From positions 96,001-160,000 of the IMG/VR virus record IMGVR_UViG_3300020576_005251: a stretch of DNA of 64,000 nt; one strand, given 5' to 3'. The notes under the pieces were generated by a model. It did no database searches. It was given only the letters and a program-made list of their open reading frames with translations, and was not told the origin of the DNA. Made by a program: the position numbers and the translations under genes. Of this stretch, positions 18,795 through 62,707 are shown piece by piece. The stretch's first letter is position 1, and the number at the start of each line of letters is the position of its first letter. The DNA comes from a virus (lineage: Duplodnaviria; Caudoviricetes).

Positions 18795-18851
18795 CCAAAA
18801 GAGTGTGAACCAATACGGCGTACGGCGCGCTCGAACGCGCCGTACGCCGTC
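18795..18851 (-). terminator. terminator hairpin containing TACGSCGTA
   Basis: ACGGCGTACGGCGCG / CGCGCCGTACGCCGT stem then T tract on minus strand. Confidence 0.6.
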
Positions 18852-18870
18852 CGTACTTGTACCAGGAAGC

Positions 18871-19668
18871 TCAGTCGATCTTGCGGACCTCGTTGGGATA
18901 GAAGAGCATGAGCTTCGGCCCCGCGAAGACCTGATCCTGGGGGCGTACGACGTACTGGTAGCCACCGAGGTTGTAGGTGATGGGTGCGTCGAGGGGCGTG
19001 CTAATCACGCCCACTGCGTGGGCGAGCGCGCCCTCGAAGAAGTTCCCGCGCTTGAGGTAGACGCGTGCGAACCGCCCACCCTCCGGCGTCAGCGCCCACT
19101 GGGCGGGCGACGTGTCGATGGCGCGCAGTTCATCCCGGAACGTCTCGATGACGTGGAAGGCGTGTACCCCAGATGGCGCCGCGCGTGCGGCGGGGCTCAT
19201 CCGCACTCCCTCGGCCGCGTTCAGCGAGCGGCGGTAGATCTGGTAGGCCGACGCGCCCCGCAGAGAGTCGTAGGGCGCGGCGAGGGTCTCAGCGAGGGAT
19301 TGCCACAGATCCTCCGCCCGATTGCGAATCTTGACCCACTCGGTCTCGGTGTACGAACCACGTCGGTCCGACTGCGCCAGACACCACGTCCAGAGCCCTC
19401 GAATGCGGTAGAACATGCCCTCCGCGTCGATGAGTTCCGCCTCGCCCTTGGGGACGAGCTTGGTGAGATCGACGCCTTTGAGGGTCTCGGCCACACCGAA
19501 GAGCGGGTGGCCGATCTGCTCTTCGAGTTCGAGCTGGACCTGCGCGTGCCCGGCGTATCCGTCGGCGATGAGCGTCTGGAGCCCGTCGAGGTCGGAGGCG
19601 TAGGGCTTGGGGTCGGGGGCGTATCGGGCGACGGTGAGGATGTAGCGGTCGATCCAGATCTTCTTCAT
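18871..19668 (-). CDS. hypothetical protein, paralog of 19665-20537
   Basis: Shared N-terminus and GNF/YxxGxLAH motif. Confidence 0.65.
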   Translation of the reverse strand: MKKIWIDRYILTVARYAPDPKPYASDLDGLQTLIADGYAGHAQVQLELEEQIGHPLFGVAETLKGVDLTKLVPKGEAELIDAEGMFYRIRGLWTWCLAQSDRRGSYTETEWVKIRNRAEDLWQSLAETLAAPYDSLRGASAYQIYRRSLNAAEGVRMSPAARAAPSGVHAFHVIETFRDELRAIDTSPAQWALTPEGGRFARVYLKRGNFFEGALAHAVGVISTPLDAPITYNLGGYQYVVRPQDQVFAGPKLMLFYPNEVRKID

Positions 19669-20537
19669 CGGAGGACTCCCAGTGAAATGTGACGAGAGAG
19701 CGTGTGCGGGAAGAACCACGCACAGCGGTTGCCGGTGTGGCCGGTGGTCACGGGGATCAGCTTGTCGCATGCGGCGCTGTAGTAGATGCCGTCGATCAGG
19801 TAGCTGATCGTTCCCGAACAGCTGGTCGTGTCGTAGTCGCACACGAGCAGGTGCGCGAGCGTGCCGTCCATGTAGTTCCCAGTGGACCAGTGAAGCTGCA
19901 TGTGTTCGGAGGTCTCGATCGGCGCCGCCGTCGGGAACTCCAGCAGATCATTGTAGAAGTCGTGAAGGATTGCGACGGTCGCCCGTTCGATGAGAGATGT
20001 GGGGTGCTCCTTCCAGCGCGCCTGAGCGAACTGGAGCAGATGATGTGTGTAGTCTCGGAGCTTGCGGAAGCCGATATAGCCCACCACGGAAGCGTCCGCG
20101 TGCGCGAAGTCCTCGATCTCGACGGCGAGGGTGCCTACTGCGAGCTTCACGGCACGCCAGACCGCGTCCGCGTCGTTCGGGCGCTGGACGCGTCCCCGCT
20201 CCTTGCTCTCGTTGATGTGAAGGCGCAGCAGCCACAGCGCCTTCATGCGCAGCGGGATGTCGGGCCCTTGGACGAACTTCGCGAAGTCTTCGTCGGGGAT
20301 CAGGGGGCGTGCGTACTCCCGCGCGCGAGGCACCCCGATCTCTTCGATGTTGAAGGGGGTGAGCGACTGCGCGGAGAGAGCGGTGAGCTTAGCGATGGTC
20401 TTGGGTTCGTCATTCTCGGACGACGTGTCGGTGACGAGGTCCTGAAAGGCGTTGTCCGAGTCGTCGTAGCAACGTGGGGCGTCAGCGTAGGTGTAGGTGG
20501 TGAGCTCGTAGTGCTCGACGTAGAGTCGTTTGGTCAT
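19665..20537 (-). CDS. hypothetical protein, paralog of 18871-19668
   Basis: MTKRLYVEHY...GNYMDGTLAH. Confidence 0.65.
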   Translation of the reverse strand: MTKRLYVEHYELTTYTYADAPRCYDDSDNAFQDLVTDTSSENDEPKTIAKLTALSAQSLTPFNIEEIGVPRAREYARPLIPDEDFAKFVQGPDIPLRMKALWLLRLHINESKERGRVQRPNDADAVWRAVKLAVGTLAVEIEDFAHADASVVGYIGFRKLRDYTHHLLQFAQARWKEHPTSLIERATVAILHDFYNDLLEFPTAAPIETSEHMQLHWSTGNYMDGTLAHLLVCDYDTTSCSGTISYLIDGIYYSAACDKLIPVTTGHTGNRCAWFFPHTLSRHISLGVLR

Positions 20538-20707
20538 TGGTTGCTCCAGTACGTGATGTGGCGGTGAGTAGTGAGAAACCGCCCCGACCCACGCGGCCAA
20601 GGCGGCGCGAAGAAGTCGCCGACGTGATCAGCCCAGGCGTCTCCGTACCCCTGCTCCTCGGCGGGGAGCTCCACCAGGAGGCTCAGGATCTTGGCGTAGG
20701 GGTTCAC
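20534..20707 (-). pseudogene. family B 5' fragment / chimeric 57-aa ORF
   Basis: First ~18 codons duplicate 20704-21117 (29-bp exact repeat), then unrelated sequence. Confidence 0.5.
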
Positions 20708-21117
20708 GTCGAGCTCCTTGTGTTGTCTTCTTCGTAGTCAGCAGAAAGCAGGCGCAAGCGCGCACAGACGCTGCGGTATCGCGCGCGGCAGGTCTCGGGG
20801 TCGTTCTTCACCACTTCGTAGTAGTCGTTGGCGATCTCCAGCTTTCTCACCACGTCGTAGAGGGCGTGGTCGTCCAGACCGAGAACCGCGTGACCCCACT
20901 GTGCGATCGGCGTCTCGGGGATGTCTGTCTCGTGTCGAAACGAAGCGCTCGCCTCCTGCTGCGGGTTCAGCGCGAAGCCGCCCTTCGGCAGCAGCGTCCC
21001 GAAGAGACAGCCGCACTCCCTCTCACCCACCTTCTGACGGCGAGACATCGAGACCAGGAGACGCTCCTCGTCGGGGAGCGCCTCCAAGAGGCTCAGGATC
21101 TTGGCGTAGGGGTTCAT
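20704..21117 (-). CDS. family B protein
   Basis: MNPY...ERLL...ECGCLFG...QWG...IAND...RY. Confidence 0.75.
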   Translation of the reverse strand: MNPYAKILSLLEALPDEERLLVSMSRRQKVGERECGCLFGTLLPKGGFALNPQQEASASFRHETDIPETPIAQWGHAVLGLDDHALYDVVRKLEIANDYYEVVKNDPETCRARYRSVCARLRLLSADYEEDNTRSST

Positions 21118-21635
21118 GCGCCCTCCGGGAAGAGCTCGGGGAAGTCGCGGCGGATCTTGCAGCGGCCCTTGAGGACGCTGGAGGTCTCCATCAACCGAAC
21201 GAAGTCGGGGGTCAGGATGTAGAAGCTCCAGCTGAAGTCGTGGCGGTAGACGCACAGGTACTGCCCCAGGGCGAGCTGGTCCGGGAACACCGCCTGCTCC
21301 TTGGGGCTGACACGCAGGAGCGTGAAGCACTTGTTGATGTAGCTGCGATCGAACACCTCGCGAGAGGAGTCGAGGCCCACCAGCGCGTGGGCGATGCCGA
21401 GGAGATCAGGCTCGTGCAGCTCATCGCCCACGCACTCGATGCGTACGGCGTATCCCTCGGCCTGAGGGTTCTTCTCCCAGTAGGCCCTGAAGTAGTCGTG
21501 GATGTACTCGCCGTGGTCTTCGGTGAAGGGCGTCGACGCCCTCGACTCTTTCAACGCTCGATCGAGCGCCATCAGGTCGTACTTGTCCAGGTCGACGCTC
21601 ACGGTCGCGAGCGGCTTCTTCTCATCTTCACTCAT
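21114..21635 (-). CDS. hypothetical protein
   Basis: Coupled ORF with RBS. Confidence 0.6.
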   Translation of the reverse strand: MSEDEKKPLATVSVDLDKYDLMALDRALKESRASTPFTEDHGEYIHDYFRAYWEKNPQAEGYAVRIECVGDELHEPDLLGIAHALVGLDSSREVFDRSYINKCFTLLRVSPKEQAVFPDQLALGQYLCVYRHDFSWSFYILTPDFVRLMETSSVLKGRCKIRRDFPELFPEGA

Positions 21636-21859
21636 ACGATCTCCATGTCCGCTGGGATCCCCGCCAGCGGTCGGCTTGCCGTGATGACATCCACGGTCTC
21701 TTGGTTGCCGTGGAGATCGGCCAGGACGATACCATCCAGGTCGATCTCCACGAAGATGCGGTGGTCGTAGTGATTGCCGTCACGGGTGACGGCGACGGTC
21801 TCGCCCTCTTCGAGGGAAGAGGCGATGAGTTCGGTGTCGCAGTGGGGTGGGTTCTTCAT
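21632..21859 (-). CDS. small acidic hypothetical protein
   Basis: ATGA overlaps at both ends. Confidence 0.5.
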   Translation of the reverse strand: MKNPPHCDTELIASSLEEGETVAVTRDGNHYDHRIFVEIDLDGIVLADLHGNQETVDVITASRPLAGIPADMEIV

Positions 21860-22404
21860 CGGCCAAGCAACGCGTTCAATGCGAACCTACCAGTGAGGCG
21901 CCGAACTTCATCCACAGTAACGCGAAGAATCGCAGCCTGCCCTGCGTCGCCCTCCATCCAGAAACGACGGTTGGGTCTGAACCCACCCGCGAATCGGCGC
22001 CGCCAGTAGTGATACCTCGGCGAACCCCCTGGAGGCGGCTTGTCATAGGGGTCGGGGGTGGGGCCGCGCGGGACGCGACCACGGATCTTGAAGATGGTGG
22101 GTTCGATCTCCCAGAGGCGTTCGAGAGGAAGGTCGTAGAGCAGAACCGCACCTGCTTGTGTGGTGTCAAGCGCGAGCGGGAGTTTCGGGTCGCTTCCCGT
22201 GAAGAACCCGATCAGGTGGCCGTACGGAAACCACTCGACGGCGGATGGTCCGTACCAGTAGCTCCGCAGCCACACATACGGAGGGGCCCCGTTGAGAAGC
22301 GCGCCCAGGTGCGTCTCCATACGCCGTACGAGCGCCTCGTGGTGCCTCGCCTTCTCGCGATCGACCTTATGCATCAGCCGATGCAGTTCACCGCGTGTCA
22401 TCAC
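21856..22404 (-). CDS. hypothetical protein
   Basis: Coupled ORF. Confidence 0.55.
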   Translation of the reverse strand: MMTRGELHRLMHKVDREKARHHEALVRRMETHLGALLNGAPPYVWLRSYWYGPSAVEWFPYGHLIGFFTGSDPKLPLALDTTQAGAVLLYDLPLERLWEIEPTIFKIRGRVPRGPTPDPYDKPPPGGSPRYHYWRRRFAGGFRPNRRFWMEGDAGQAAILRVTVDEVRRLTGRFALNALLGR

Positions 22405-22700
22405 GAGTCGTACTCCTCCCAGTTAGTGTTCTTGGGGTCGATCCCCAGCTCTTCGTGGATGAGCGCGCGCTCCGCTTCCATGCCGAGGTTCTTGGGGATC
22501 GCGTGGCCGTTGGCGAGGCGAAGGAGGAGCTCGGCCACGGCCAGCTGCGTACGTGTCTCCGGGAGTCCGTGCATCAGCAGAGACTGGACGGCCTCCACTC
22601 CGTACGCCTTACGCAGCGCGCCCAGGGAGAGCTTGTCGATCCTACTCCAGATGACCAGCTCGGAGAGCTGGCGAAGAATCTTGTCAGTATTCACGGCCAT
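22401..22700 (-). CDS. hypothetical protein
   Basis: Coupled ORF. Confidence 0.55.
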   Translation of the reverse strand: MAVNTDKILRQLSELVIWSRIDKLSLGALRKAYGVEAVQSLLMHGLPETRTQLAVAELLLRLANGHAIPKNLGMEAERALIHEELGIDPKNTNWEEYDS

Positions 22701-23293
22701 TGACGAAACCTCACCTTCGAAGGGTCCTTGAGCTTGCCTTCATCGTCGAAGTCGGTGTCCATGTCGATGTCCTGCTTCCACTCGGAGTGCGGGCACGTCT
22801 CATCCTCGCAGAGCCCGTTCTTGTCGAGGGGCGTAGCGCATCGCTTGCAGTTGCTCGGGTAGTTCGGCATCGCCAGCAGCGTCTCGGGGTCGCGGGAGAA
22901 GATGTCCGCGAGTCGCTCCTGGAGCGTGGCCTTGGCGGTAGAGACTTCCTGGCGCGCAGTGATCTCACTGAGCAGGACGACGTTGGCGAAGCGCGCGACG
23001 AGGTCGGACAGGCGTGGCAGGTCCTTGTCGTAGACGCTTTCCACATCTCGAAGCGACGCCGAGTTGCGATAGAACGCCTGCATGAGCGTCTCGCCGTTGA
23101 GCGTCGATGTCTGGCCCTTCTCGGGGAATCGGAAGTCGTACACGCCCCCGCTCTCGTCGTTGTCCTGCGTCCACACCAGGAAGTCGTCGCCGTCCTGAAT
23201 GAAGGCATCACGTACACACCCGAGCCTGCGTAGGTGGACCGCCATGGCTCGGATCAGCTCCCGGAGGCTCTCCGCTTCGTTCTCGTTGATCAT
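22691..23293 (-). CDS. hypothetical protein with C-terminal Zn finger
   Basis: CKRC...CEDETCPH. Confidence 0.6.
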   Translation of the reverse strand: MINENEAESLRELIRAMAVHLRRLGCVRDAFIQDGDDFLVWTQDNDESGGVYDFRFPEKGQTSTLNGETLMQAFYRNSASLRDVESVYDKDLPRLSDLVARFANVVLLSEITARQEVSTAKATLQERLADIFSRDPETLLAMPNYPSNCKRCATPLDKNGLCEDETCPHSEWKQDIDMDTDFDDEGKLKDPSKVRFRQWP

Positions 23294-23294
23294 G

Positions 23295-23486
23295 TCACTT
23301 CCCCTTCGTTGTCACTTCGTAGATCTCGACTTCGCTGTCATCCTCAGCCAGTCCGTTGTAGACCCAGCTCACATTGCCGATGTTCTCTCGCATCTTGGCG
23401 TCAGCCTCCTCGCGCGTTGGTGCTTCGATATCAAGGCGACCCTTCACGTGCGCCGTGGACGACAGTCGATAATGGAACTTCATCAC
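23295..23486 (-). CDS. small hypothetical protein
   Basis: IEAPTREEA motif, common in small phage proteins. Confidence 0.55.
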   Translation of the reverse strand: MMKFHYRLSSTAHVKGRLDIEAPTREEADAKMRENIGNVSWVYNGLAEDDSEVEIYEVTTKGK

Positions 23487-23977
23487 TCCACCTCCTCAGT
23501 CAGCAGCTTCCGGTCGATCGGCCGCGTCGCTTCCGCCATCAGGCGTTGCATCGGCTCAGGCAACGCTTCCTGGCACGCCGCATCGGGGAACTCCGCCGTC
23601 ACCTCACGCACCACCGCCGCGCGCAACTTCATCAGGGCGTTGTGGTTGAGGTTCGAGATCTGCCCCTGTCGCCGGTACTTCTTCTTGCACTCGGCGAGGC
23701 GTTCCTCGATGTCCGCGTCCGCGATCAGCTGCTCCTTGCGAAGGAGGAACTCCGCCGCGCGCGTCTCCCAACGCATCTGGGCGAACTCGCGGCGCGAGAG
23801 CGCATCCTCCGAACGCGTGATGCCCCGCGCCTTGTCGTGCTCGATCTGCTGTTGGATGGAGTTGCTCCGCACCTTGACGAAGGCCAGGGCGGCGTCGCAC
23901 TCGGCGATGGTTCGTGGGATGCGAACGTTCGCTGCGAGGCAGAAGAAGGGGGCAGGGATGGCAGGGTTCTCGCTCAT
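23483..23977 (-). CDS. hypothetical coiled-coil protein
   Basis: AGGAG RBS; promoter motif at 24019-24030. Confidence 0.6.
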   Translation of the reverse strand: MSENPAIPAPFFCLAANVRIPRTIAECDAALAFVKVRSNSIQQQIEHDKARGITRSEDALSRREFAQMRWETRAAEFLLRKEQLIADADIEERLAECKKKYRRQGQISNLNHNALMKLRAAVVREVTAEFPDAACQEALPEPMQRLMAEATRPIDRKLLTEEVE

Positions 23978-24042
23978 GGTGGTTCTCCTGAGAGCGCCGT
24001 TTCTTTGGCACTCAAAGTCTTATACCAGAGCGTGGGCCGGAT

Positions 24043-24684: not shown

Positions 24685-24713
24685 CCGGGAGGGGGTGGCG
24701 GCGGTGGGGAGGG

Positions 24714-27646: not shown

Positions 27647-27647
27647 T

Positions 27648-28372: not shown

Positions 28373-28479
28373 ACTTTGCCCTTCCTGACCGAGCGGTCAG
28401 AGTTCCCTACTTTCCCTTCTACCAGCAAAGACGGGAATCTACGCAGGCGGGGAACGAGCCGCAGAGGGGGTCGGCAAAG

Positions 28480-29170
28480 ATAACGTACACGAGGATGATA
28501 CCCGTGTACGTTGTTTACGTTAGGTTTGAACGCCTCGTTTTCTAGGGGTTCAAACGTAACGTAGACAGGTTTCCTAGCCAGCTATCAGTGATATGCCACT
28601 AAAGGGGGGTTGAGGCGCATGCCTGGGCGCCCGCCCGCAGGGACATTAGCGCCTGCGAGCGCGCACACGCGTTGCAACCCCCGTGCCGGAGGCACTCCCC
28701 CCAGCTACTTCTGCCTCCCCCGAAGAAACAGAGCAGACACCAAACCCTCTGAAAACAAAGGCAAAAGAAGCTGGCCCAAACCTTGCAGAACCCCAAAGAA
28801 CCAACCAATACATAAAAGCAACTCAATCCTTTGACGCGTTTATTTTTTTGACTTTCCAGACTTTTGGTCTGGTCTGGTGTTTGCTTGGTGTCTCTTGGCA
28901 TGGGGGTTGCTTTTCTTTCCTTGGCTTGGCTCTTGCTAAGGCCGAAGGCGGGTCGGCCTCCGGCCTGCCCCTTGCAACGCGCGCCGCGACCGCGCACGCG
29001 GTGATGTCCCCGCCCCCGCGCGCCCCGGCATGCGCCTCAACCCCCCTTTAGTGGCACATAGCTGATAGCTGGCTAGGAAACCCCACCCCACCCCCTCGAA
29101 GCCCCCAGAAACAAGCCACTCTAACGTAAAGTAAACAACGCCCCTTGCCCTCACTCTCGGTTACGTTATT
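28480..29170. repeat. ~700-bp degenerate inverted repeat, non-coding (origin, terminus or genome-end candidate)
   Basis: 28568-28623 vs 29027-29082 are reverse complements at 53/56; further in-register matches about axis ~28825. Confidence 0.85.
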
Positions 29171-29190
29171 ATTGCCCCTGGAGGTTCCCC

Positions 29191-29807: not shown

Positions 29808-29879
29808 CAAAAGAAACCGAGCCGCCGCCCCTCGACGGGCGGCGGCTCATCGAGGGGGCGGCGTTCGTACGGCGTACGG
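29808..29879 (-). terminator. terminator with adjacent TACGSCGTA
   Basis: CGCCGCCCC...GGGGCGGCG stem, TTTCTTTT tail on minus strand. Confidence 0.55.
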
Positions 29880-33580: not shown

Positions 33581-33582
33581 CG

Positions 33583-36854: not shown

Positions 36855-36897
36855 GAAAACAAAAGCCGAACCCCGCGCGTACGGCGTACGCGCGGGG
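36855..36897 (-). terminator. 27-bp palindrome centred on TACGGCGTA, with T tract
   Basis: CCCCGCGCGTACG-G-CGTACGCGCGGGG at 36871-36897; TTTTGTTTT follows on minus strand. Confidence 0.6.
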
Positions 36898-36904: not shown

Positions 36905-37417
36905 TCAGACCTCGATCACCGCGCCGCCCTGCCCTGCCATCCGCACCCGGTCGTAGAGGGCTTGCACCACCCACGTCTCCTTGACCTGCCCCACCGTCTC
37001 GCGCTCCTGGTCATCCCCGGTCCGGATCGGGATGTTCCGTCGTCGGATCCCTTGCGCCTTCAGCGCCCAGGACTGGCAGGCGAACGCATAGGTCCTGTCG
37101 TCCGCCTCGAAGCTGTAGACGCAGTTCCCCATCTCCTCCAGCCGCTGGAAGTCGCCGCACCACCGCGCGCGCTCCTTCTCGACAGCCTCAGCCGCAGGCT
37201 CGACCAGAGTTGCCACCGTGTCGGTCGCGTCGTCGTAGTGCCCCATGTTCACGAGCCTGCGCGCGTAGGTGATCCCAGCCGCCAGCGACATCAGCAGATG
37301 CTTCATCACCGCGCACCGGTGCGGGTACGGATGTGCCCGCCCATTCACCATCTCCTGGGTGTTCTTGTGCTTGTCCTCGCACACCGCGATCTTCTCGTTC
37401 AGGTCACTCTTGTTCAT
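36905..37417 (-). CDS. hypothetical protein
   Basis: Coupled to the last family A gene. Confidence 0.6.
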   Translation of the reverse strand: MNKSDLNEKIAVCEDKHKNTQEMVNGRAHPYPHRCAVMKHLLMSLAAGITYARRLVNMGHYDDATDTVATLVEPAAEAVEKERARWCGDFQRLEEMGNCVYSFEADDRTYAFACQSWALKAQGIRRRNIPIRTGDDQERETVGQVKETWVVQALYDRVRMAGQGGAVIEV

Positions 37418-43545: not shown

Positions 43546-43560
43546 CTTCTACCAGAAAAC
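43546..43560 (-). promoter_or_regulatory. phage promoter-like motif driving the paralog arrays
   Basis: TTTTCTGGTAGAAG on minus strand. Confidence 0.6.
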
Positions 43561-43574: not shown

Positions 43575-43625
43575 GCCAAAGAAAGCGCGTACGGCGTATC
43601 GCAACAAGTGCGATACGCCGTACGG
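43575..43625 (-). terminator. terminator whose stem is two TACGSCGTA copies
   Basis: CGTACGGCGTATCGCA-loop-TGCGATACGCCGTACG then TTTCTTT on minus strand. Confidence 0.7.
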
Positions 43626-43630
43626 GAGGC

Positions 43631-47810: not shown

Positions 47811-48403
47811 AACCACCCCAGCGCCCTCAGCGCCTTCGTCATCTGCTCTCTCGACGGGTAACCGCCCTCCCCGCTTCGGTTCTCGATCGCGCGCTCGTCG
47901 TTGTCCCTGAACCAGCGATACACTTCGCGCTCCCACTCCTCCGGCTCCTCGCCATTCAGGAGCCCCCACCCCTCGCCTCCGATGTTGCTGATCGTGGCCG
48001 CGTACTCACGTTCATTCAGATCGTCTTGGTCTGCGATGGGGTAGTCGTCGAGCTTCGCGTACCACTCGTAGAGCCACTCGTAAAACGGAGTCAGCGCCCC
48101 CTTCTCGTCGATCAGCTGGAAGCAGAGCTGCTCCACCCACCCGAACCCGAAGTGCGTGTGGGCTCGGATGGCCCACATCCTCGCCAGTTCCGGCCTCTCC
48201 TCCGCCAGCTTCGTGAGCGCCTTCTTGAGCGCTGCGCAGTTCGACTTTTCGAGGAGGTTTGCGTCTCGCGTGAGGATCCCCGGGCCGATCGTCCAGGTGT
48301 CAGGGTTCTCCGCCACAGGGTGTCCCGACCGCATGGAGAAGTCAGAGGGGACGCGCAGCATCTCTCGGATCTGCGCCTCGGTCGGATCTCGCGGGAGACT
48401 CAT
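47789..48403 (-). CDS. hypothetical protein
   Basis: HFGFGWVE...LDDYPIAD. Confidence 0.6.
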   Translation of the reverse strand: MSLPRDPTEAQIREMLRVPSDFSMRSGHPVAENPDTWTIGPGILTRDANLLEKSNCAALKKALTKLAEERPELARMWAIRAHTHFGFGWVEQLCFQLIDEKGALTPFYEWLYEWYAKLDDYPIADQDDLNEREYAATISNIGGEGWGLLNGEEPEEWEREVYRWFRDNDERAIENRSGEGGYPSREQMTKALRALGWLEEDEDE

Positions 48404-48789
48404 CAGAGCCACCTCGCGATCAAGACCTTCTCGGGAGGCGTGCCGAACGCGACGCACGGCGGCAGGTCCTCAATCGTAGTCTCTTCGTACAGGGCCTTGC
48501 TCAGCGCCTCCACGAGAGCCTGCCCCAGGTCAAGCCCGAAGCCGCGCATGACGACGCAATCATACCCCTTCCACTGCACGTACTTCCGCCCGAGGATCTT
48601 CGCGATGTTGTATGCGTAGGTCCGCACCCGCAGCCCGTCTTCGTACGTGGGGTCCGGGAGGATCGAAAGGACCTCGATGTAGCGCGACATCCCACTGCGC
48701 ACCGTGTGCCGGTTGATGAGGCAGAGCGTTCGGATGTTGTTCTCTCGGAACTCTCTGCGCATGATATCGATTGTGTACTGGTTTGTCAT
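48403..48789 (-). CDS. hypothetical protein
   Basis: SGMSRYI...GFGLDLG. Confidence 0.6.
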   Translation of the reverse strand: MTNQYTIDIMRREFRENNIRTLCLINRHTVRSGMSRYIEVLSILPDPTYEDGLRVRTYAYNIAKILGRKYVQWKGYDCVVMRGFGLDLGQALVEALSKALYEETTIEDLPPCVAFGTPPEKVLIARWL

Positions 48790-49262
48790 GTCATCTCCTT
48801 CACCCACTGCTCGATCATCTCCCAGGGGATGGTCGCCGATTCGATCTCACCCTCCCCGTGCTTGGGGAGACCGCACCACGCGACGCCCACTTCCATGATG
48901 ACTTGCTCATCGCACTCGGTACGGTAGATCTGCGCTTCGTTGATGATCAGGTCCTCACCCTCCAGGACGAACACGTCGGGGAACTCGCGGAGACTTCCGG
49001 AGCGTTGGAACACCTGATCCCGCTGATCATCCGCCGCTTCCTCCCGCTCGGTCTTCTCTTCCCCATCGTCCCCAAAGAACACCGGGGCCCCTCCGTCCCA
49101 GAATCGAAGTTCAGAGAGGTCGCTGTCGGCTGCGCAGAGCGACGCACGAGTCTCGCGGCGTCGCAGCAGCCGCTGGAGATCCTCGCCGTCCAGCCCCACG
49201 ACCACGAAGGAACACGAACACCAGTCGGGGGTGTCCACGGTCAGCATGATGTACTTCTTCAC
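48786..49262 (-). CDS. hypothetical protein
   Basis: Coupled ORF. Confidence 0.55.
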   Translation of the reverse strand: MKKYIMLTVDTPDWCSCSFVVVGLDGEDLQRLLRRRETRASLCAADSDLSELRFWDGGAPVFFGDDGEEKTEREEAADDQRDQVFQRSGSLREFPDVFVLEGEDLIINEAQIYRTECDEQVIMEVGVAWCGLPKHGEGEIESATIPWEMIEQWVKEMT

Positions 49263-49564
49263 GGGCTTTTCCTTTTCTTCGGTGCCACTTCGTTCAGCAT
49301 CTCAGTCAGATCATCCGGCGCATCCGGCTCTGCGCCCTCCGGTTCGTCTCCCAGCAGTTCATCCGCCAGTTGATCGAAGTCGTCGGCGTCCCTACTCCAC
49401 TCTGCCTCACCGTCTGGGTAGGGCATCTTGTCGTAGATGATGTCCAGGATCACCGCAGGTGTCCTGATGTCTCGATGGGTCTCTGCCAGCAACCGTAGCG
49501 CCCCCACGATGATGTCGATCTCCGTGTCTTCGAACTCGAAGACTCCATCGCTTACTTTTCTCAT
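49259..49564 (-). CDS. acidic hypothetical protein
   Basis: Start MRKVSD chosen. Confidence 0.55.
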   Translation of the reverse strand: MRKVSDGVFEFEDTEIDIIVGALRLLAETHRDIRTPAVILDIIYDKMPYPDGEAEWSRDADDFDQLADELLGDEPEGAEPDAPDDLTEMLNEVAPKKRKSP

Positions 49565-50333: not shown

Positions 50334-50397
50334 CAAAGAAAACGCGACGCCGTACGCCCTGCCGCCGAACCATTCGGCGGCAGGGCGTACGGCGTAT
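50334..50397 (-). terminator. long terminator hairpin containing TACGSCGTA
   Basis: ~23-bp stem ACGCCGTACGCCCTGCCGCCGAA / TTCGGCGGCAGGGCGTACGGCGT with TTTTCTTT tail on minus strand. Confidence 0.7.
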
Positions 50398-50400
50398 TGA

Positions 50401-50697
50401 TCACTTCCGACCGACGAACGCGGCGTGAAGAACACGCAGCGCGTCACCCGGCTTCACGCCGATCTCGTCCTCGACGAACGCCTGGATCTGCCGATTCAGG
50501 AGCGTGAACCAGAGCCACGCCACGCCCACTCCGAATGTCAGGACACAGACGTTCCTACGCAGGATCGCCGTGTCCTCAGTCCACACCGTGAGGCTCAACG
50601 CCGCAACGGTTCCCGCCATGACTCCAAAGAGACTGGAGTACATCGCGACGCTCTTGATCGCCGCGCGGTGCGCGGGATCGGTCCAGTGGATACCCAT
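50401..50697 (-). CDS. two-TM membrane protein
   Basis: AAGGAGG RBS; promoter motif 50703-50716. Confidence 0.65.
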   Translation of the reverse strand: MGIHWTDPAHRAAIKSVAMYSSLFGVMAGTVAALSLTVWTEDTAILRRNVCVLTFGVGVAWLWFTLLNRQIQAFVEDEIGVKPGDALRVLHAAFVGRK

Positions 50698-53175: not shown

Positions 53176-53299
53176 GGGTCTCCTATACGGCGTATTCGTC
53201 CGCCGCCCGAACCCTCGACACGCAGGGGCTCGGGCGGAGGACGAAGTCGAGCGCACCCACAACATGTGGGTGCGCTCATCCTTCTACCTGTGTTCTGGG

Positions 53300-53843: not shown

Positions 53844-53855
53844 CGCGAACTCCTC

Positions 53856-55354: not shown

Positions 55355-55357
55355 GGG

Positions 55358-57279: not shown

Positions 57280-57461
57280 GCCCCCTCCTTGGGTAGGTCG
57301 CGATAGCTCATGCGGATCTCTCCGAACAGCCACAGGACGATCAAGACGACGATGGTCGTCTTGTACTCGCCCGCGTAGGTGACCACGGCCAGGAGTACCG
57401 CGCATGCGAGGTTGATACTATTGGCCCCCACCGCGACCATCACCCGCGTTAGTTTGTCCAC
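57276..57461 (-). CDS. small two-TM membrane protein
   Basis: Hydrophobic, 61 aa. Confidence 0.55.
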   Translation of the reverse strand: MDKLTRVMVAVGANSINLACAVLLAVVTYAGEYKTTIVVLIVLWLFGEIRMSYRDLPKEGA

Positions 57462-57496
57462 TTGACACCTTCTTCCGTTTCTTATCTACTTCTACC

Positions 57497-57781
57497 ATGG
57501 ATGTCACCGGCCACCAGCTGGATGCGCTGATACGCCGTACGCGAGACTTCGCGCCGTGCGCCACCCTTCTCGCCATCCGTGACCACTACCGAACCACGGT
57601 CTGGGGGCGCTTCTGCTTCGCCCCCGACCGGCAAGCCCCGCTCTTCGAAGCCTACCATCGAAGATCCCTCGAACCCTTCTCCTATCCTGATCTCGACGCC
57701 GAGATCGACCGCACCAACACCATCACCATCACGCTGGAGGCCCCCTATGACACGCTGGCTCAGGAAGTCATTCGTCCGTGA
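57497..57781 (+). CDS. hypothetical protein
   Basis: ATG ORF, phage-like codon usage. Confidence 0.5.
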   Translation: MDVTGHQLDALIRRTRDFAPCATLLAIRDHYRTTVWGRFCFAPDRQAPLFEAYHRRSLEPFSYPDLDAEIDRTNTITITLEAPYDTLAQEVIRP

Positions 57782-58115
57782 CACGATCGACAAGTCCATC
57801 GACCGCATCCGTGCGCAGAAGGCGTCGGTCGATGAGAAGATGGACCAAGCCCGTCTGCCTCACAACGAAGAGGCCCGCGCGATCGTGCGGTATCAAGTGC
57901 TCGAACAGATCGACCGTCACTGCAACGGGCTCCTGAGCGAGCGCGACTACTGGTGCGCGGGATGGTTCCCCTGGGTGGCGGTGCCGTTCGACGTGTGGCG
58001 CAACTGGCACCAGTCGGGTCAGCTGGGTATCGTCTATGCCCCGCCCAGCCTCATCGGCGGGCTCGACCCTTTCCTCATCCCGTCTTCGCGCGACTACACC
58101 AACCTCCCCTCATGA
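57747..58115 (+). CDS. hypothetical protein
   Basis: GGAGG RBS. Confidence 0.5.
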   Translation: MTRWLRKSFVRDTIDKSIDRIRAQKASVDEKMDQARLPHNEEARAIVRYQVLEQIDRHCNGLLSERDYWCAGWFPWVAVPFDVWRNWHQSGQLGIVYAPPSLIGGLDPFLIPSSRDYTNLPS

Positions 58116-58399
58116 ACATCCGCAAGCTGATCAAGAGCCTCCCCACCGGCTTCGCCGACGAGGCGCACGCCATGGGCCCCGAAGAGCTCAAGGCTGCGGT
58201 CATCACCTGTGAGGCGAACATCGCCGAGAGCGAGCGGGCCAAAGAGAACGACGACGACCTGCGCGCCGCCCAGGAGCGACTGAAGGACTTGAACGGCGCC
58301 TACGCCGATGCAGTCAAGGCCCAGCGTGCCAAGATCCGCTACCTCATGCTTCAGCTGGAGCAGAAGGGGTTGCTGCTGCACGAGGGGGATGACGAGTAA
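58112..58399 (+). CDS. coiled-coil hypothetical protein
   Basis: ATGA overlap. Confidence 0.6.
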   Translation: MNIRKLIKSLPTGFADEAHAMGPEELKAAVITCEANIAESERAKENDDDLRAAQERLKDLNGAYADAVKAQRAKIRYLMLQLEQKGLLLHEGDDE

Positions 58400-58451
58400 A
58401 GAAAGAGGGGAGCGGCGTACGGCGTACGACCGAAGTCGTACGCCGTACGCG
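58397..58451. terminator. terminator between convergent genes; stem of two TACGSCGTA copies, UUCG loop on minus strand
   Basis: GCGTACGGCGTACGAC-CGAA-GTCGTACGCCGTACGC. Confidence 0.75.
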
Positions 58452-58459
58452 AGAAGGGA

Positions 58460-58885
58460 TCAGAGGTGGGTGGTGTGTCCGGAGCGCGCGGCCTCGGCCT
58501 GGGCGTGCATGCGGTCGAACCGCTCCTGCTGCATGACGGCGCGCGCCTCCATGCGCAGCCGCGCCACCTGCGCGGCGTTCGGGCCGAGGTGCGCGCGCCG
58601 CTGCCACCGGGGGCGCGTGTCGCGCTCCTCGGGGAGGATCGAGACGACCCCCGCCTCGCGGTGGGTCTGGACGTACGTCGCCGTGGCGACGACGCGGGCG
58701 GCGAGCTCGGTCGGGAGCGGACGGCCCTTGAAGACGACCTTCAGCCCCACGCGCCCCTTCACCGAGGCGGGGAGCGTCGCGGGAACGAAGTGCGCGTTCG
58801 CGGCGAGGTGGGCGATGAGCGGGAGCCGGAGCTCGCCCGAACGGGGGGTGACGATCGACATGTCCTGCTTGATGAACTTCGCCAT
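58460..58885 (-). CDS. basic hypothetical protein
   Basis: AGGAGG RBS; promoter motif 58924-58937. Confidence 0.65.
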   Translation of the reverse strand: MAKFIKQDMSIVTPRSGELRLPLIAHLAANAHFVPATLPASVKGRVGLKVVFKGRPLPTELAARVVATATYVQTHREAGVVSILPEERDTRPRWQRRAHLGPNAAQVARLRMEARAVMQQERFDRMHAQAEAARSGHTTHL

Positions 58886-58987
58886 GACTGCGTTCCTCCT
58901 GAGCCCACTTCACGGGCTCATGTCTTATACCTGAAAACCCCTTCACTTTTGGGTTGCGTCTTGCACTACTTAGTGTAACCTCTTCGC

Positions 58988-59818
58988 ATGCCCACCCCCC
59001 TCGTCATCTATCACGCCGACTGCATGGATGGCCTCGCTGCCGCCTGGGCGGTCAGCAAGGCGCACCACAACGGCGTCGAGCTCCACGCCGCACAGTACCC
59101 CGACCCCCCGCCGCCCAACTGCGCAGGCCGCGATGTGATCATCGTCGACTTCTCCTACCCCCGCGAGCAAGTCGAAGAGATCCACCGGGTCGCCAAGTCG
59201 CTCATCATCCTCGACCACCACAAGACCGCTGAGGAGGCCCTCAAGGACCTTCCGTACGCCGTCTTCGACCCGAAACGTTCGGGGGCGGCGATGGCGTGGG
59301 ATCACTTCAACCCGGGAAAGCCGCGCCCCTGGAAGATCAACTACGTCCAGGACCGCGACCTGTGGACCTGGGCGCTGCCGAACTCCAACGCGGTGAATGC
59401 GTACATCCGGACGCGGGTGCGAACCGTGGAGGACTTCGATGAGCTCTTCCCGCTCGACATGCCCACGCGGGAGATCGACCTGGGGTCGATGGTGCTCGAC
59501 GCGGAGGCGTCGTACGTTCGGGAGACGATGAAGCACGCGCGGGAAGGGATCCTCCGCCGTAGCTTCGCGGACACTGTCCGCCCGGTCCCCATCGTCAACG
59601 CAGGCACCTACTGCCACTCCGAACTCCTCGGCGAACTCGCCAAGGGCGCCGACTTCGCGGTCGGCTGGTTCGCCACCGCCAGGGGCACCTACCGCTACTC
59701 CCTGAGGTCGGATCCGCAGGGTCTCGATGTCTCCGCCATCGCCAAGCTCTTCGGCGGTGGCGGACACAAGCACGCAGCCGGATTCGAAGTCGATCAACCC
59801 GTTCACACCTACGTCTGA
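58988..59818 (+). CDS. DHH/DHHA1 family phosphoesterase
   Basis: YHADCMDG, VDFS, LDHH, DRDLW, SLRS, GGGGHKHAAG motifs. Confidence 0.9.
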   Translation: MPTPLVIYHADCMDGLAAAWAVSKAHHNGVELHAAQYPDPPPPNCAGRDVIIVDFSYPREQVEEIHRVAKSLIILDHHKTAEEALKDLPYAVFDPKRSGAAMAWDHFNPGKPRPWKINYVQDRDLWTWALPNSNAVNAYIRTRVRTVEDFDELFPLDMPTREIDLGSMVLDAEASYVRETMKHAREGILRRSFADTVRPVPIVNAGTYCHSELLGELAKGADFAVGWFATARGTYRYSLRSDPQGLDVSAIAKLFGGGGHKHAAGFEVDQPVHTYV

Positions 59819-59826
59819 GGTTTCAC

Positions 59827-60540
59827 ATGAAGTCACCCGTCGCCTTCTGCGGTCGCAAGAAGTCTGGCAAGTCCACCATGGCCGCGTACCTCGTCTCCAA
59901 GGGGTACACCGAGCTCTCGCTCGCGGCTGAGCTCAAGACCCTCGCGGTCATGCTCTTCCCGAGCGTGCTCACCCCGGCCCGCGTCAACGCCACCTCCGAC
60001 GCCAAGGATGCCGTGTTCACGCCCGCCGAGCGTCGGGCGTCGGCGAACAACTCCCTCGCAGCCACCACATCCATTCGCCACGACCCCGATGTGCGCGCCG
60101 TGCTCACCAAGCTCTTCTCGGGCGCGGAGAAGCCGCCCACGAACTACGAGATGTCGGACCGCTTCGCCCGCGTCTTCGCGAACGTCGAGCGATCTCTCGC
60201 GAGCCCCCGCACCATCCTCCAGGTGCTCGGCACGGAGTGGGGGCGCTCTCTCTGGGAGGACGTGTGGCTGAACAGCGTACGGCGTACGATCGTGGACAAG
60301 CCCGGCCTCTACGTGATCCCCGACGCGCGCTTCCCCAACGAGCTCACCTACCTCAAGCAGCGCCTGGGGGCCTCGTGTTACTGGCTGGAGGCGGAGACGC
60401 GCCTGGGCCCCAACAAGGACGAGCACGCGTCGGAGCCCAAGCGCGAGGCGCTGATCGGCCAGTGCGACGGTGAGATCGACACCAACGGCCCGGTGGGCGA
60501 TTCGTACGCCCAGGTCGAGCGCCTCATCCTCGCGACCTGA
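59827..60540 (+). CDS. deoxynucleoside monophosphate kinase (T4 gp1/T5 dnk-like)
   Basis: GRKKSGKST P-loop; PRTILQVLGTEWGR; DARFPNE; HASE. Confidence 0.85.
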   Translation: MKSPVAFCGRKKSGKSTMAAYLVSKGYTELSLAAELKTLAVMLFPSVLTPARVNATSDAKDAVFTPAERRASANNSLAATTSIRHDPDVRAVLTKLFSGAEKPPTNYEMSDRFARVFANVERSLASPRTILQVLGTEWGRSLWEDVWLNSVRRTIVDKPGLYVIPDARFPNELTYLKQRLGASCYWLEAETRLGPNKDEHASEPKREALIGQCDGEIDTNGPVGDSYAQVERLILAT

Positions 60541-60541
60541 G

Positions 60542-62635
60542 CTACTTGTCCTTCACGTCCAGCTTCACCCGCTGCTTGACTTCCTTCGGAGGGAGCAGCA
60601 GCGGGTGCTTGTTGCTGGCGACCATATCCTCGACACCCATGGGCTTGTAGGTAGACTTGCCGATGTGCCACCCGAGGGTGCCGCCGAGCAGCGGGGCACC
60701 GACCTGAGACGCGAAGAAGAGCGGTAGGGACAACACCCTCGCGGCGGTCGGATGTTTCGCACCGAGGGCGTTCACTGCCTTCAGCGTCACCGCAGGCGCC
60801 CCTGGGATGCCCAGGAATGTACCGGCCAGGGTCCCCCACATCGCTCCCTGCGCCGCCCGGTTGATCTGCTTCTTCTCGTTCACCTTCGCCACTTGCCCCA
60901 GCGAGGCGTAGCCCATGTTCAGCAGATCGTCCTGCATCTGCTGAGCCATCAGGCGCGGCTTGCCCTCGAACTTCTCGTGCAGCTGCTCGGTCGCGAAGCC
61001 GTGGTTGAACTCGCTGTCCAGAGTCACCCCGGCCGGGTGCATGTATCGCAGGAGCCGCTTGCGCTTCTGCTGGACGACCGTCACTCCGTCCATGGCCTTG
61101 ACCACGTCGTCGAAGCTCGCTCGCTCGGCGCTGAGCTTCTGCCACAGTGGGCGCTTGAGTGGACCTCGGTCGCTCGCCTCTTGCAGCGCGCTCGCGATGT
61201 CCTTCGCGAGGATCCCCTTCTGCTCCGACGTGTGCGAGAGGTACTGCTCGATCGACTTCTTGGGCTTCATCCCGATCAGGAATGACGCCTTGTCGATCAA
61301 GTCTTCAGGGAGCTTCGAGTGATACTTCATCACTCGGACTTCCCGCTCTTCCTCGGGGAGGTGCTCGTGGCTCTTGTACCGGATGCCACGCCCGATCACC
61401 TGCTCGATGCGCGAGGGATTCCAGTGCGGTTCCATCAGCTGAATCGAACGCGTGCCCTTCAGGTCGAGACCCTCCGACCCGGCGCCCGACAGCAGGAGTA
61501 GCGGGGTCTTCCCGGAGTTGTAGTCCTCGATCATGGTTCGACGCTGCGTGGGGGACACCGACCCGGTGAACACGTTGTGCGCGACGCCCTGCTGCGTCAG
61601 CGCACGGCTCAGCGGCAGGATCCCCGAGTCGAGGTAGTTCGAGTAAACCACGCCCCGATGGTTGGGGTTCTTCGAACGCATCTCGTTGAGGTGCTGGAGC
61701 ATCAAGTTGAGCTTGCGCGAGTCCTTGATCTCCTGCTCGTCGGTCATGGAAGGGTCGTATGCACGTGCGGTGTTCGACACCTGACGCAGCGCCCCCTGGA
61801 ACGCATTCAGATCCTTGGACTCGCTCTTGTCCAGCGGGAGCCCCGAGCGAATCTTGGCGCGCAAGTACCACGGCATGGAGCCCTCGTGGAACTTGTAGTA
61901 CTCGTTTTGCTTGGACCCGAGAGGCACCTCATGCAGCTCATCGATCCGACGCGGGAAGCCCTCCCCGCCGCCCTGGTGTACGTCCACGTAGCCGGTGGCC
62001 GCGTCCACGAGGCGCTGTCGATTCACGAGCGCGGGCACCGTGACGTTGTCCACTGGATGGCCGAGGAGCTGCCCCTTCATGCGATCCCACAGCGGCGCCT
62101 GGATGGTCTTGGTCCCCACGAAGGTCTGACCGAACAGCTTTGGATCATCCGGCAACACCTTGCGTCCCGCAGCGGTGTTGAGCAGGATCGCGAGGTCGTG
62201 CGCCTGATTGTACACGGGAGTGCCGGTGAGGAGCAGCCGATCCTTCGCCTGGGCGACCTCCTGGGCGATGTGCTTCGCGATGCCGGTGCCCGCGTTGCGC
62301 GCCTTGTGCGCCTCGTCCATCACGGCGAGGCCGTCCTTGCGTACGTCGCGCTCCTTGAGGGTTCGCTCGTAGGACCGCACGCGCGCCCCATCGGGGATCC
62401 CTCCCGTGTGCTTGATCATCTCCTTCTGGTAGTTGGGGACCAGAGGGGCGGGGACGATGGCCTCGATGGGCTCATCCAGGGCGTCGCCTGCGGCGATGGA
62501 GGTCAGGGTCTTTCCGCTTCCCAAGCCATGCGCCACCAACACCCCATGCGACGCCTTCAGCTTGTCAATCACCCGCTGCTGGTGAGGCTGTAGCGGCGTG
62601 CGGAGGTCGGCGGTCTTCAGGTAGAGGGCGTGCAC
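60542..62635 (-). CDS. SNF2-like SF2 helicase/ATPase with C-terminal hydrophobic extension
   Basis: HGLGSGKT, DEAH, LTGTP, EGLDL, QVIGRGIR motifs. Confidence 0.9.
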   Translation of the reverse strand: MHALYLKTADLRTPLQPHQQRVIDKLKASHGVLVAHGLGSGKTLTSIAAGDALDEPIEAIVPAPLVPNYQKEMIKHTGGIPDGARVRSYERTLKERDVRKDGLAVMDEAHKARNAGTGIAKHIAQEVAQAKDRLLLTGTPVYNQAHDLAILLNTAAGRKVLPDDPKLFGQTFVGTKTIQAPLWDRMKGQLLGHPVDNVTVPALVNRQRLVDAATGYVDVHQGGGEGFPRRIDELHEVPLGSKQNEYYKFHEGSMPWYLRAKIRSGLPLDKSESKDLNAFQGALRQVSNTARAYDPSMTDEQEIKDSRKLNLMLQHLNEMRSKNPNHRGVVYSNYLDSGILPLSRALTQQGVAHNVFTGSVSPTQRRTMIEDYNSGKTPLLLLSGAGSEGLDLKGTRSIQLMEPHWNPSRIEQVIGRGIRYKSHEHLPEEEREVRVMKYHSKLPEDLIDKASFLIGMKPKKSIEQYLSHTSEQKGILAKDIASALQEASDRGPLKRPLWQKLSAERASFDDVVKAMDGVTVVQQKRKRLLRYMHPAGVTLDSEFNHGFATEQLHEKFEGKPRLMAQQMQDDLLNMGYASLGQVAKVNEKKQINRAAQGAMWGTLAGTFLGIPGAPAVTLKAVNALGAKHPTAARVLSLPLFFASQVGAPLLGGTLGWHIGKSTYKPMGVEDMVASNKHPLLLPPKEVKQRVKLDVKDK

Positions 62636-62648
62636 CCTCTTAGGATAG

Positions 62649-62707
62649 CCAAAAGAAGGGGTGTCCGTCTACGGCGTACGCCCCAGGGCATGGGGCGTAC
62701 GCCGTAT
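62649..62707 (-). terminator. terminator with stem of two TACGSCGTA copies
   Basis: TACGGCGTACGCCCCA-loop-TGGGGCGTACGCCGTA; TTCTTTT downstream on minus strand. Confidence 0.65.

Follow-up and report, generated by a model that had tools for sequence, protein, structure and literature searches.

Why should hairpins that lie between the genes of a phage be built from a short palindrome that also occurs, many times over, inside those genes? The question is posed by a window of 64,000 nt (the whole stretch of DNA analysed) within the 172,885-bp (~173 kb) genome of an uncultured phage. The initial annotation described this palindrome as forming the stems of intrinsic terminators, and proposed that a motif-binding factor could switch between termination and readthrough. 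The hairpin arms are indeed built from the dispersed palindrome. The explanation toward which the evidence tilts is that two independent codes, RNA hairpins and a DNA lattice site, share the same sequence, with no requirement for termination switching.

The palindrome, TACGSCGTA, is 9 bp long, and its flanks stretch the symmetry to ~15 bp. The genome contains 92 copies (88 events, ~1 per 2 kb), and the window contains 35 where 0.11 are expected. Called genes contain 70 of the 92 copies (~76%), which occupy all three frames and are distributed uniformly along the genes. Orientation or strand bias is absent: the one asymmetric position, the central base, reads G in 34 cases and C in 36 on the sense strand. 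Early and late genome halves have the same density. Spacing is more even than chance: copies placed at random would give a CV of 0.99 and a largest gap of 9.8 kb, against observed values of 0.52 and 5.2 kb. Events in hairpins have normal neighbour gaps, and deleting them opens holes of 7.0-7.2 kb. Because it is present in 92 copies, mostly intragenic and overly even in spacing, the palindrome is not a terminator element; its hairpin copies are ordinary lattice members.

Non-coding DNA, 9% of the genome, holds 24% of the copies, and non-coding events are concentrated in an arm of small genes (10/23 versus 8/65 elsewhere; P=0.005). Intergenic hairpins, 856 nt in total, contain six events, versus ~0.4 expected from a genome-wide model or ~1 from a non-coding model (Poisson P ~6e-4 or lower). 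This enrichment in stems, ~six-fold within non-coding DNA, depends on crude gene calls.

Six hairpins in the window contain the palindrome, and another has a copy nearby (window coordinates):

18814-18850, minus strand: hairpin (18815 in the text), palindrome at the base of both arms (exact, 18814-18822; near, 18842-18850); z -5.1; begins 20 nt past the stop of gene 18871-19668 (minus strand)
18795-18802, minus strand: T-rich tract, 13 nt from the 18815 stem, then the RBS and ATG of ORF 18474-18782
29819-29848, minus strand: canonical terminator-like hairpin without the palindrome in its stem; 12-13 bp stem, T-tract from 2 nt after
29868-29876: palindrome copy between the stop codon (29880) and the 29819-29848 hairpin, 19 nt upstream of the hairpin on the minus strand
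36871-36897, minus strand: hairpin, single palindrome copy (36880-36888) as its apex; 12-bp stem; z -3.7; 8 nt past the stop of gene 36905-37417 (minus strand), with a T-tract and RBS directly after
43586-43626, minus strand: hairpin, 16-17 bp stem, exact copies at 43590 and 43614; z -7.5
43576-43585, minus strand: T-tract adjoining the 43586 stem, with a consensus early promoter and ATG (43532) downstream
43547-43554, minus strand: extended -10 element of a sigma-70-type early promoter, from a family of 20 intergenic members
50346-50396, minus strand: hairpin (50347 in the text), perfect 23-bp stem, -51.6 kcal/mol, z -8.4; palindromes at the stem base (exact, 50388-50396; near, 50346-50354); begins 5 nt past the stop at 50401
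50335-50343, minus strand: T-tract, 4 nt from the 50347 stem, then the RBS and ATG (50323), with no promoter between
58415-58450, minus strand: hairpin, perfect 16-bp stem, C(UUCG)G tetraloop, copies at 58418 and 58439; z -8.3; between convergent genes 58112-58399 (plus strand) and 58460-58885 (minus strand)
58398-58406, minus strand: T-tract, 9 nt from the 58415 stem
62670-62706, minus strand: hairpin, 16-bp stem, copies at 62670 and 62698; z -6.6; stop codon (62718) 11 nt before the hairpin, SNF2-helicase start (62635) 35 nt beyond it
62649-62658, minus strand: T-rich element, 12 nt from the 62670 stem

Direct reading of the sequence and an inverted-repeat scan bear out the two exact copies that had been described as arms at 43588-43624, 58415-58450, and 62670-62706. 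The pairing of one exact with one near copy at 18815-18850 and 50347-50395 holds as well; both near copies (18842 and 50346) deviate in the outermost base only. The hairpin at 36871-36897 was absent from the earlier list. The copy at 29868, which had been said to abut a hairpin, does lie near one, the term being loose for a distance of 19 nt. Two exact copies do not count as independent evidence: a palindrome in one arm is mirrored automatically in the other, so the second copy is unavoidable.

The six motif hairpins are very stable. In the comparison with shuffled sequences they fold at -28 to -52 kcal/mol (-24 at the weak end of the overall range), z-scores run from -3.7 to -8.4, and none of 200 shuffles is as good. 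Evidence for the 29819-29848 hairpin is weaker (z -3.0; 2/200 shuffles as good). Alternative RNA folds, suggested from the self-complementarity of each arm, fare poorly: the mini-hairpins within arms are 21-43 kcal/mol less stable, and the long hairpin makes up 48-96% of the ensemble. All six are in sense orientation, 5-20 nt past stop codons, and ahead of a U-rich tract, and in the five cases where the palindrome is in the arms it is always at the stem base. Among hairpins with a T-tract, those with the palindrome number 6/9 in one 45-kb arm versus 0/9 elsewhere. Other hairpins share this layout, including one terminator-promoter tandem. Apart from fragments of the palindrome, no 8-mer recurs in four or more of the 26 intergenic hairpins; inner stems and loops are unrelated. 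UUCG or GNRA tetraloops, with loops read by eye, occur in ~7/17 hairpins followed by a T-rich tract, a frequency that points to selection on RNA.

How many of these are intrinsic terminators? The T tract that had been placed after each hairpin is present, at a distance that varies. It begins 0-5 nt from the stem on the minus strand at 36871, 43586, 50347, and 29819, and 9-13 nt from it at 18815, 58415, and 62670. Hairpins 36871 and 43586 have the textbook terminator layout. The U-tract of an intrinsic terminator starts about 0-3 nt from the stem, as it does at 36871, 43586, and the non-motif hairpin 29819; at 50347 the gap is 4 nt. No more than three of the six motif hairpins can thus be called intrinsic terminators with any security, the other three being without an adjacent U-tract. 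Judged from sequence, 36871, 43586, and 50347 are most likely Rho-independent terminators or attenuators; 18815, 58415, and 62670 may be weak or U-tract-less terminators, or hairpins that protect 3' ends. Because it requires a run of T no more than 2 nt from the stem, a simple search for consensus terminators picks up 43586 and 29819 alone. Contigs from three metatranscriptomic wastewater runs (a ~98% identical strain; possibly DNA) bridge the 50347 hairpin, and show neither ends nor strand. Rfam 15, searched with the whole window at the gathering score, gave zero matches, and a tRNA scan found nothing.

The small-gene arm contains a family of early promoters, all 20 intergenic members of which are on the minus strand. 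Two promoter motifs had been placed beside hairpins: that at 43546 is a true member of this family, whereas that at 18791 is only a weak variant. Counted from the start site of the 43547 promoter, the palindrome copies of the 43586 hairpin fall near positions -55 and -79. There is a mild excess of lattice sites no more than 100 bp from early promoter start sites (6/20 versus ~2.3 expected; P 0.01-0.03). Four of the six motif hairpins precede a gene without a recognisable promoter. The T-rich tract was considered as a general UP element and rejected; start codons are mostly 10-25 nt further on. The promoter consensus, hairpins, and U-rich element provide a first transcription map of the early arm, useful for studies of the lattice and the ParB-like protein.

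Relatives distinguish what is conserved. Relative L046, 79.9% identical overall to this phage (G000), keeps the 62670 hairpin: the inner stem is changed yet paired, through compensatory substitution, and the palindrome arms are letter-perfect. At that locus the 10-nt spacer after the stem is not conserved; the T-rich element is. All six G000 palindrome copies within the 12 kb common to L046 are conserved, versus a chance of ~0.13 each. The terminator upstream of the helicase occupies the same position in the more distant G001 and L049 and in L046/G000, with stems that are unrelated between lineages. Other lattice-bearing relatives do not use their own motif in stems (G001, 0/25 hairpins; G002, 0/7; L049, 0/9), so stem use has something particular to this lineage. 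Further searches gave little: megablast against phage GenBank found no match, and a viral-contig scan for paired palindrome copies turned up nothing beyond low-GC contigs, unrelated and carrying two copies apiece. The 141-aa protein of a neighbouring gene found no match in viral contigs; homologues of this protein are 77-88% identical.

The likeliest reader of the palindrome appears to be the phage's own ParB/Noc/KorB-like protein. Its gene (genome coordinates 48324-49508, minus strand) encodes an HTH_ParB match above the cut-off (E 8.6e-7), with matches also to TIGR04285 noc (E 4.7e-8) and to the PDB structure of Noc, 7ol9 (E 1.7e-4). Alignment to Noc begins at a GxxRxRA-like stretch. The genome has no match above threshold to PF02195, the CTP-binding ParB N-terminal domain, and no KorA-like partner or ParA was identified in it. 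ParB-family sites are characterised by a palindrome of ~13-16 bp and a cognate HTH protein on one replicon; the phage has the ~15-bp symmetry and a candidate for that protein. The promoter of the ParB-like gene is itself flanked by palindrome sites, at about -36 and +16. Relative G001 has a parS-like lattice motif and a full ParB, found with a Pfam model; the G000 protein as query found no match in G001-G005.

These elements suggest how two codes could come to occupy the same DNA. At the RNA level, the six inverted repeats are intercistronic hairpins of the minus-strand small-gene arm; transcription of that arm would start at sigma-70-type promoters with an extended -10 element, and the host polymerase is presumed to carry it out. 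At the DNA level, TACGSCGTA belongs to an evenly spaced, genome-wide lattice, in which it would act as a double-stranded-DNA site. The argument is one of cost: whenever even spacing requires a site among tiny genes, selection would write the palindrome into non-coding DNA, and hairpin stems would be the freely variable part of short intergenic gaps, provided that complementarity is maintained. Some features fit this cost model poorly. The ~six-fold enrichment in stems exceeds what a pure "any free DNA" rule predicts, and the consistent stem-base position is unpredicted. The location of all six hairpins in one 45-kb arm could reflect a regional function. The arrangement illustrates how a genome-wide DNA signal and transcription signals are packed together in a compact phage genome, and offers six natural sites where stem-preserving and motif-preserving mutations could separate the two codes.

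Might the lattice reader gate transcription boundaries as well? Bound to the double sites, it could act as a roadblock at U-tract-less hairpins or as a KorB-like promoter silencer, and early readthrough would then depend on the amount of accumulated protein. This is unlikely, although several observations speak for it: readthrough must be tuned where a promoterless gene follows (4/6 motif hairpins); three of the six hairpins are without an adjacent U-tract; lattice sites are mildly enriched near early start sites and bracket the promoter of the ParB-like gene; and motif hairpins are confined to one arm. There is precedent too, in that KorB represses from OB sites both near and far (PMC11790492), and phage repressors can halt elongation at dispersed sites (PMC9283540). 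Against it, the site is symmetric, without orientation bias relative to transcription, mostly intragenic, uniformly positioned, and equally dense in the early and late halves. Nor do paired copies, at spacings of 21, 24, 28, 28, and 42 bp, share a helical phase, an arrangement that was considered and rejected. Non-motif hairpins have the same layout, tandem included; stem association is absent from the three relatives examined, and stem sequence at the orthologous pre-helicase terminator is unrelated from lineage to lineage. From the sequence, a protein-gated termination switch is not favoured. A more specific proposal, that a ParB-family clamp loaded at double sites in hairpin DNA forms a stoperator-like roadblock or insulator, making termination effective at U-tract-less hairpins and shutting early operons as protein accumulates, is rather improbable; if true, it would give a ParB-type protein a transcription-boundary role on a lytic phage chromosome.

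The inverted repeats might instead function purely as DNA, as composite operators or cruciform double sites (for example, strong clamp-loading sites), with the RNA hairpin a by-product. The repeats, with their 16-23 bp arms and spacers of 3-5 nt, are of a size at which supercoiled DNA can extrude cruciforms, so that cruciforms here are physically possible. The invariance of the palindrome arms between G000 and L046, next to a variable post-stem spacer, and the distant U-tract at three hairpins also agree with a DNA function. Yet inner stems differ wholly between hairpins, and the compensatory change preserves pairing, not sequence; a UUCG tetraloop stabilises RNA, not DNA; and the six hairpins, 36871 and 43586 in textbook terminator form, each follow a stop and precede a U-rich tract, a placement shared with hairpins that lack the motif in this genome and its relatives. 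A DNA-only role is improbable. Simple coincidence, by which a few of 92 copies of a GC-rich, self-complementary motif well suited to stems landed in terminators, is very improbable, given six events where at most ~1 is expected and arms that are letter-for-letter identical in L046.

The nearest parallel to shared codes is found in competent bacteria. In Neisseria, DNA uptake sequences are frequently arranged in inverted pairs, which serve as Rho-independent terminators; being paired brings no increase in uptake (PMC2397512; bioRxiv 10.1101/2025.10.24.684340). Like the DUS of Neisseriaceae and the USS of Pasteurellaceae, the phage palindrome is a short DNA motif at kb-scale density, mostly intragenic, whose intergenic copies often form close inverted pairs as the stems of terminators, putative ones in the phage. 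By this comparison, the hairpin-embedded lattice sites look like a DNA-uptake-sequence arrangement rather than a termination switch, and dual coding would be a solution that competent bacteria use also. The differences are several. DUS and USS are asymmetric, so that a pair needs two motifs, whereas the phage palindrome is its own mirror; their reader is a competence pilin of the bacterium, here probably a phage ParB-family protein; the phage lattice, unlike DUS and USS, is more evenly spaced than chance; and stems hold 6/~88 phage events versus roughly half for DUS.

KorB and its OB sites in the IncP-1 plasmid RK2, as well as ParB-parS and Noc-NBS, share with the phage a dispersed palindrome and a ParB-family HTH reader. 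As with KorB, some sites are adjacent to promoters and others distant, and there are sites at the promoter of the reader itself. The OB sites of RK2 number about a dozen and are intergenic or regulatory in location, whereas the phage has ~90 sites, mostly within genes. We know of no OB site that forms a terminator stem.

Stoperators of cluster A mycobacteriophages, bound by L5 gp71-type repressors, provide a documented elongation stop between transcription units (PMC9283540), the role that the initial annotation proposed for the palindrome. Here too one protein-binding site is present in many copies over a phage genome. Stoperators, however, are asymmetric 13-mers, bound by monomers, in short intergenic gaps and oriented with transcription; membership in this class was rejected for a symmetric palindrome (G 34, C 36) with 70/92 copies intragenic.

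The REP and BIME elements of enterobacteria are dispersed palindromes that form RNA hairpins at gene 3' ends and are also bound by protein as DNA. REPs have a full 35-40 nt sequence in common and are strictly extragenic and chromosomal, whereas the phage hairpins have in common only a 9-11 bp core. A mobile palindromic repeat (REP- or MITE-like) was likewise rejected: inner stems, loops, and flanks are unrelated, and only the palindrome core is shared.

Six hairpins on the minus strand of the window incorporate the palindrome TACGSCGTA:

18815-18850, minus strand, one exact and one near copy in the arms
36871-36897, minus strand, palindrome forming the apex
43586-43626, minus strand, exact copies in the arms
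50347-50395, minus strand, one exact and one near copy in the arms
58415-58450, minus strand, exact copies in the arms, C(UUCG)G tetraloop
62670-62706, minus strand, exact copies in the arms

The initial annotation had named all except 36871, and sequence reads and an inverted-repeat scan located each of its five where it had been placed. The observation itself is thus confirmed and extended by a sixth hairpin; the interpretation built upon it is partly supported, a switching of termination by a motif-binding factor being disfavoured.

The hairpins have stems of 12-23 bp and loops of 3-5 nt, and begin 5-20 nt 3' of a minus-strand stop codon (the exception, 58415, lies between convergent genes). 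At 18815 and 50347, the near copy departs from the exact copy by a mismatch at the outermost base only. Minus-strand RNA folding gave -28 to -52 kcal/mol (z -3.7 to -8.4), and 0 of 200 shuffles folded as well; a neighbouring hairpin whose stem the palindrome merely adjoins (29819-29848) is weaker, with z -3.0 and 2 of 200 shuffles equalling it. The six have nothing in common outside the palindrome, and every 8-mer found in at least 4 of 26 intergenic hairpins is a piece of it. UUCG or GNRA tetraloops close about 7 of the 17 hairpins with a downstream T-rich tract (loops read by eye), which argues for function as RNA. Judged by sequence and predicted folding, the hairpins are selected as structures.

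The proposal that each arm might fold alone to give alternative RNA structures is rejected: a single arm folds at 0 to -8.6 kcal/mol, a pair of arm hairpins falls short of the long hairpin by 21-43 kcal/mol, and the long hairpin accounts for 48-96% of the RNA ensemble. Nor do the "two exact copies" represent paired motifs. A palindrome in one arm necessarily recurs in the other, so each hairpin counts as one event.

Nearly all intergenic hairpins are followed, on the minus strand, by a T-rich element with the consensus YTTTCTTTTGG (18 copies minus, 6 plus):

window 9236, 12667, 14088, 18795, 24663, 29809, 36857, 43577, T-rich element
window 49585, 50335, 58398, 62651, T-rich element
relatives' contigs L046 8463-8475, L047 7463-7475, L049 9966-9976 and 17888-17898, T-rich element

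It generally lies 0-13 nt 3' of the hairpin (about 40 nt at 14088), and is kept in relatives even where the hairpin spacer is not. This spacing bears on the description of the stems as intrinsic terminators. The description best suits 36871 and 43586, where the element adjoins the stem (as it does at 29819), and 50347, where it is 4 nt off; it is less secure for 58415, 62670, and 18815, whose spacing of 9-13 nt is unlike that needed by canonical Rho-independent termination. The motif hairpins would be intrinsic terminators only in part. The element could serve as a U-tract, belong to a short-leader promoter, or act in translation as a U-rich element; a general role as promoter UP element was rejected, because a start codon usually follows within 10-25 nt.

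Intergenic k-mer enrichment identified a sigma-70-type promoter family: a CTGAAA-type -35-like element; a stretch of 16-17 nt that ends T-rich; and an extended -10, TGGTAKAAG. All 20 intergenic copies are on the minus strand:

window 9874, 13088, 13501, 24020, 28417, 43547, minus strand, promoter
window 49854, 50704, 53282, 57490, 58925, minus strand, promoter
genome 760, 4561, 6764, 49917, 54581, 80866, 95491, 168887, 172326, minus strand, promoter

This family probably marks early units transcribed by host polymerase. Of the two promoter motifs reported beside hairpins, 43546 is a family member directly 3' of hairpin 43586, and 18791 is only a weak variant. After 4 of the 6 motif hairpins the next gene has no promoter of this family, which would make these hairpins attenuators inside operons. 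Lattice sites (the palindromes dispersed over the genome) lie within 100 bp of 6 of 20 promoter start sites, a mild enrichment (P 0.01-0.03). A second small palindrome family comprises hairpins at window 53249-53277 and genome 45962-46006, which have the 11-nt arm GCGCACCCACA and its complement in common. The former begins about 5 nt past a promoter's -10 element and would be a transcript 5' end; the loop of the latter contains a lattice copy with one mismatch.

The palindrome is a feature of the DNA across the whole genome rather than a terminator element. The window holds 35 copies, against 0.11 expected, and the genome 92, with symmetry carried by the flanks out to about 15 bp. Within gene calls (GC3-based, made in this analysis, and crude) lie 70 of the 92, in all three frames, uniformly placed along genes and without orientation bias relative to transcription. 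Counted as 88 events, the sites are spaced much more evenly than chance predicts: the CV is 0.52 versus 0.99, and the largest gap 5.2 kb versus 9.8 kb (P<1e-4). Hairpin copies are ordinary members of this lattice, their neighbour gaps (0.9-5.0 kb) being typical; removing them leaves holes of 7.0 and 7.2 kb, above any gap present. Central A/T variants (9 in this genome) outnumber any other one-mismatch variant, so the central base may be loosely read. One lattice copy in L046 (position 4328) aligns to the central-A variant TACGACGTA at window 66565.

In the relative L046, about 80% identical to this phage (79.9% in DNA, 87% for the SNF2-family helicase), hairpin 62670 is kept: palindrome arms and T-rich element are identical, the inner stem is altered on both sides with pairing intact, the loop differs, and the post-stem spacer is not conserved. 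All 6 copies in the 12 kb common to both are kept letter for letter (chance about 0.13 each). Other relatives, at 77-88% identity, are represented by long contigs, one of 156 kb. In two other relatives, G001 and G002, the lineage's own lattice motif occurs in 0 of 25 and 0 of 7 hairpins, and L049 has the motif of our phage, yet in the stem of 0 of 9. Sites in these three sometimes fall in the short gap between stop codon and hairpin, like 29868 here. The terminator immediately 5' of the helicase gene keeps its position in G001, L049, and the lineage of L046 and our phage, with completely different stems; stem sequence is thus free to drift, and the palindrome has displaced it in the last of these lineages only. 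Such comparisons go against a conserved coupling of lattice motif and termination.

The helicase start itself has two further features. A lattice-type site, TTCAC-NNN-GTGAA, overlaps the orthologue's GTG start in G001 and G002 (loci L001 and L002, both 9985-10000). A -10-like hexamer, TAnnnT, lies 6-7 nt 5' of the start in our phage, L046, G001, and L049, pointing to an mRNA with no leader or a very short one.

Why, then, is the palindrome in stems? Non-coding DNA, about 9% of the genome, holds 24% of copies. Of the 23 events in the small-gene arm, which spans 18-63 kb of the window and has a median gene of 116 aa, 10 are non-coding, versus 8 of 65 elsewhere (P=0.005). Intergenic hairpins (856 nt) contain six events where about one is expected within non-coding DNA, a figure resting on the crude gene calls. 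The simplest account is cost. Short gaps would be taken up by promoters, ribosome sites, and T-tracts, leaving stems as the only GC-rich sequence open to free choice, and there the palindrome would be placed. A KorB-like or stoperator-like boundary function is an unlikely alternative, kept in view by three points that cost does not settle: motif hairpins occur in a single arm, where they make up 6 of 9 T-tract hairpins against 0 of 9 outside it; the palindrome sits at the stem base wherever it occupies the arms (at 36871 it is the apex); and the enrichment depends on the crude gene calls. Sharing of sequence between a DNA-level motif and terminator stems is a known arrangement; new here is its occurrence in a phage with a lattice, and the lattice is the more unusual feature.

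The genome encodes a putative reader of the lattice:

genome 48324-49508, minus strand, ParB/Noc-like gene

Its product matches Pfam HTH_ParB above cut-off, with further hits to the Noc model and to solved structures of Noc; Pfam ParB_N was not detected in this genome. In G001, a parS-like variant of the motif recurs about 25 times over 131 kb, and the ParB encoded there carries both domains. Two lattice copies flank the promoter 5' of the gene (genome 49889-49949; L065, a stretch of the same genome, 1889-1949), roughly at -36 and +16 relative to the predicted start, a layout as would be expected for autoregulation. The more distant G003 (163 kb) and G004 (188 kb) lack both a ParB HTH and a motif of this kind. 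The S-centred palindrome is absent there and other words are over-represented: in G004, about 22 copies of a 14-mer, palindrome CAAGGCCTTG plus GAAA; in G003, 8-13 copies of the 16-mer AAGCGCGTGGAGGTAC.

The source contig is single (172,885 bp, 64% GC), the window being its bases 96001-160000, and no near match was found among GenBank phages; public runs containing the phage are for the most part wastewater and aquatic metagenomes. By the GC3-based calls, nearly all window genes are on the minus strand, with one small plus-strand island beside the first of two SNF2-family helicase genes:

58988-59818, plus strand, DHH/DHHA1 phosphoesterase
59827-60540, plus strand, dNMP kinase
60542-62635, minus strand, SNF2-family helicase
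genome 50310-52319, minus strand, SNF2-family helicase

A non-coding region of about 800 bp (28380-29190) has an AT-rich centre and contains a pair of roughly 50-bp inverted repeats (about 28575-28625 and 29028-29078), two small hairpins, and several repeats of the AACGTA/TACGTT type. GC skew flips exactly there, from about +0.03 to about -0.25, with gene strand unchanged. The region may be an origin of replication or a junction between modules.
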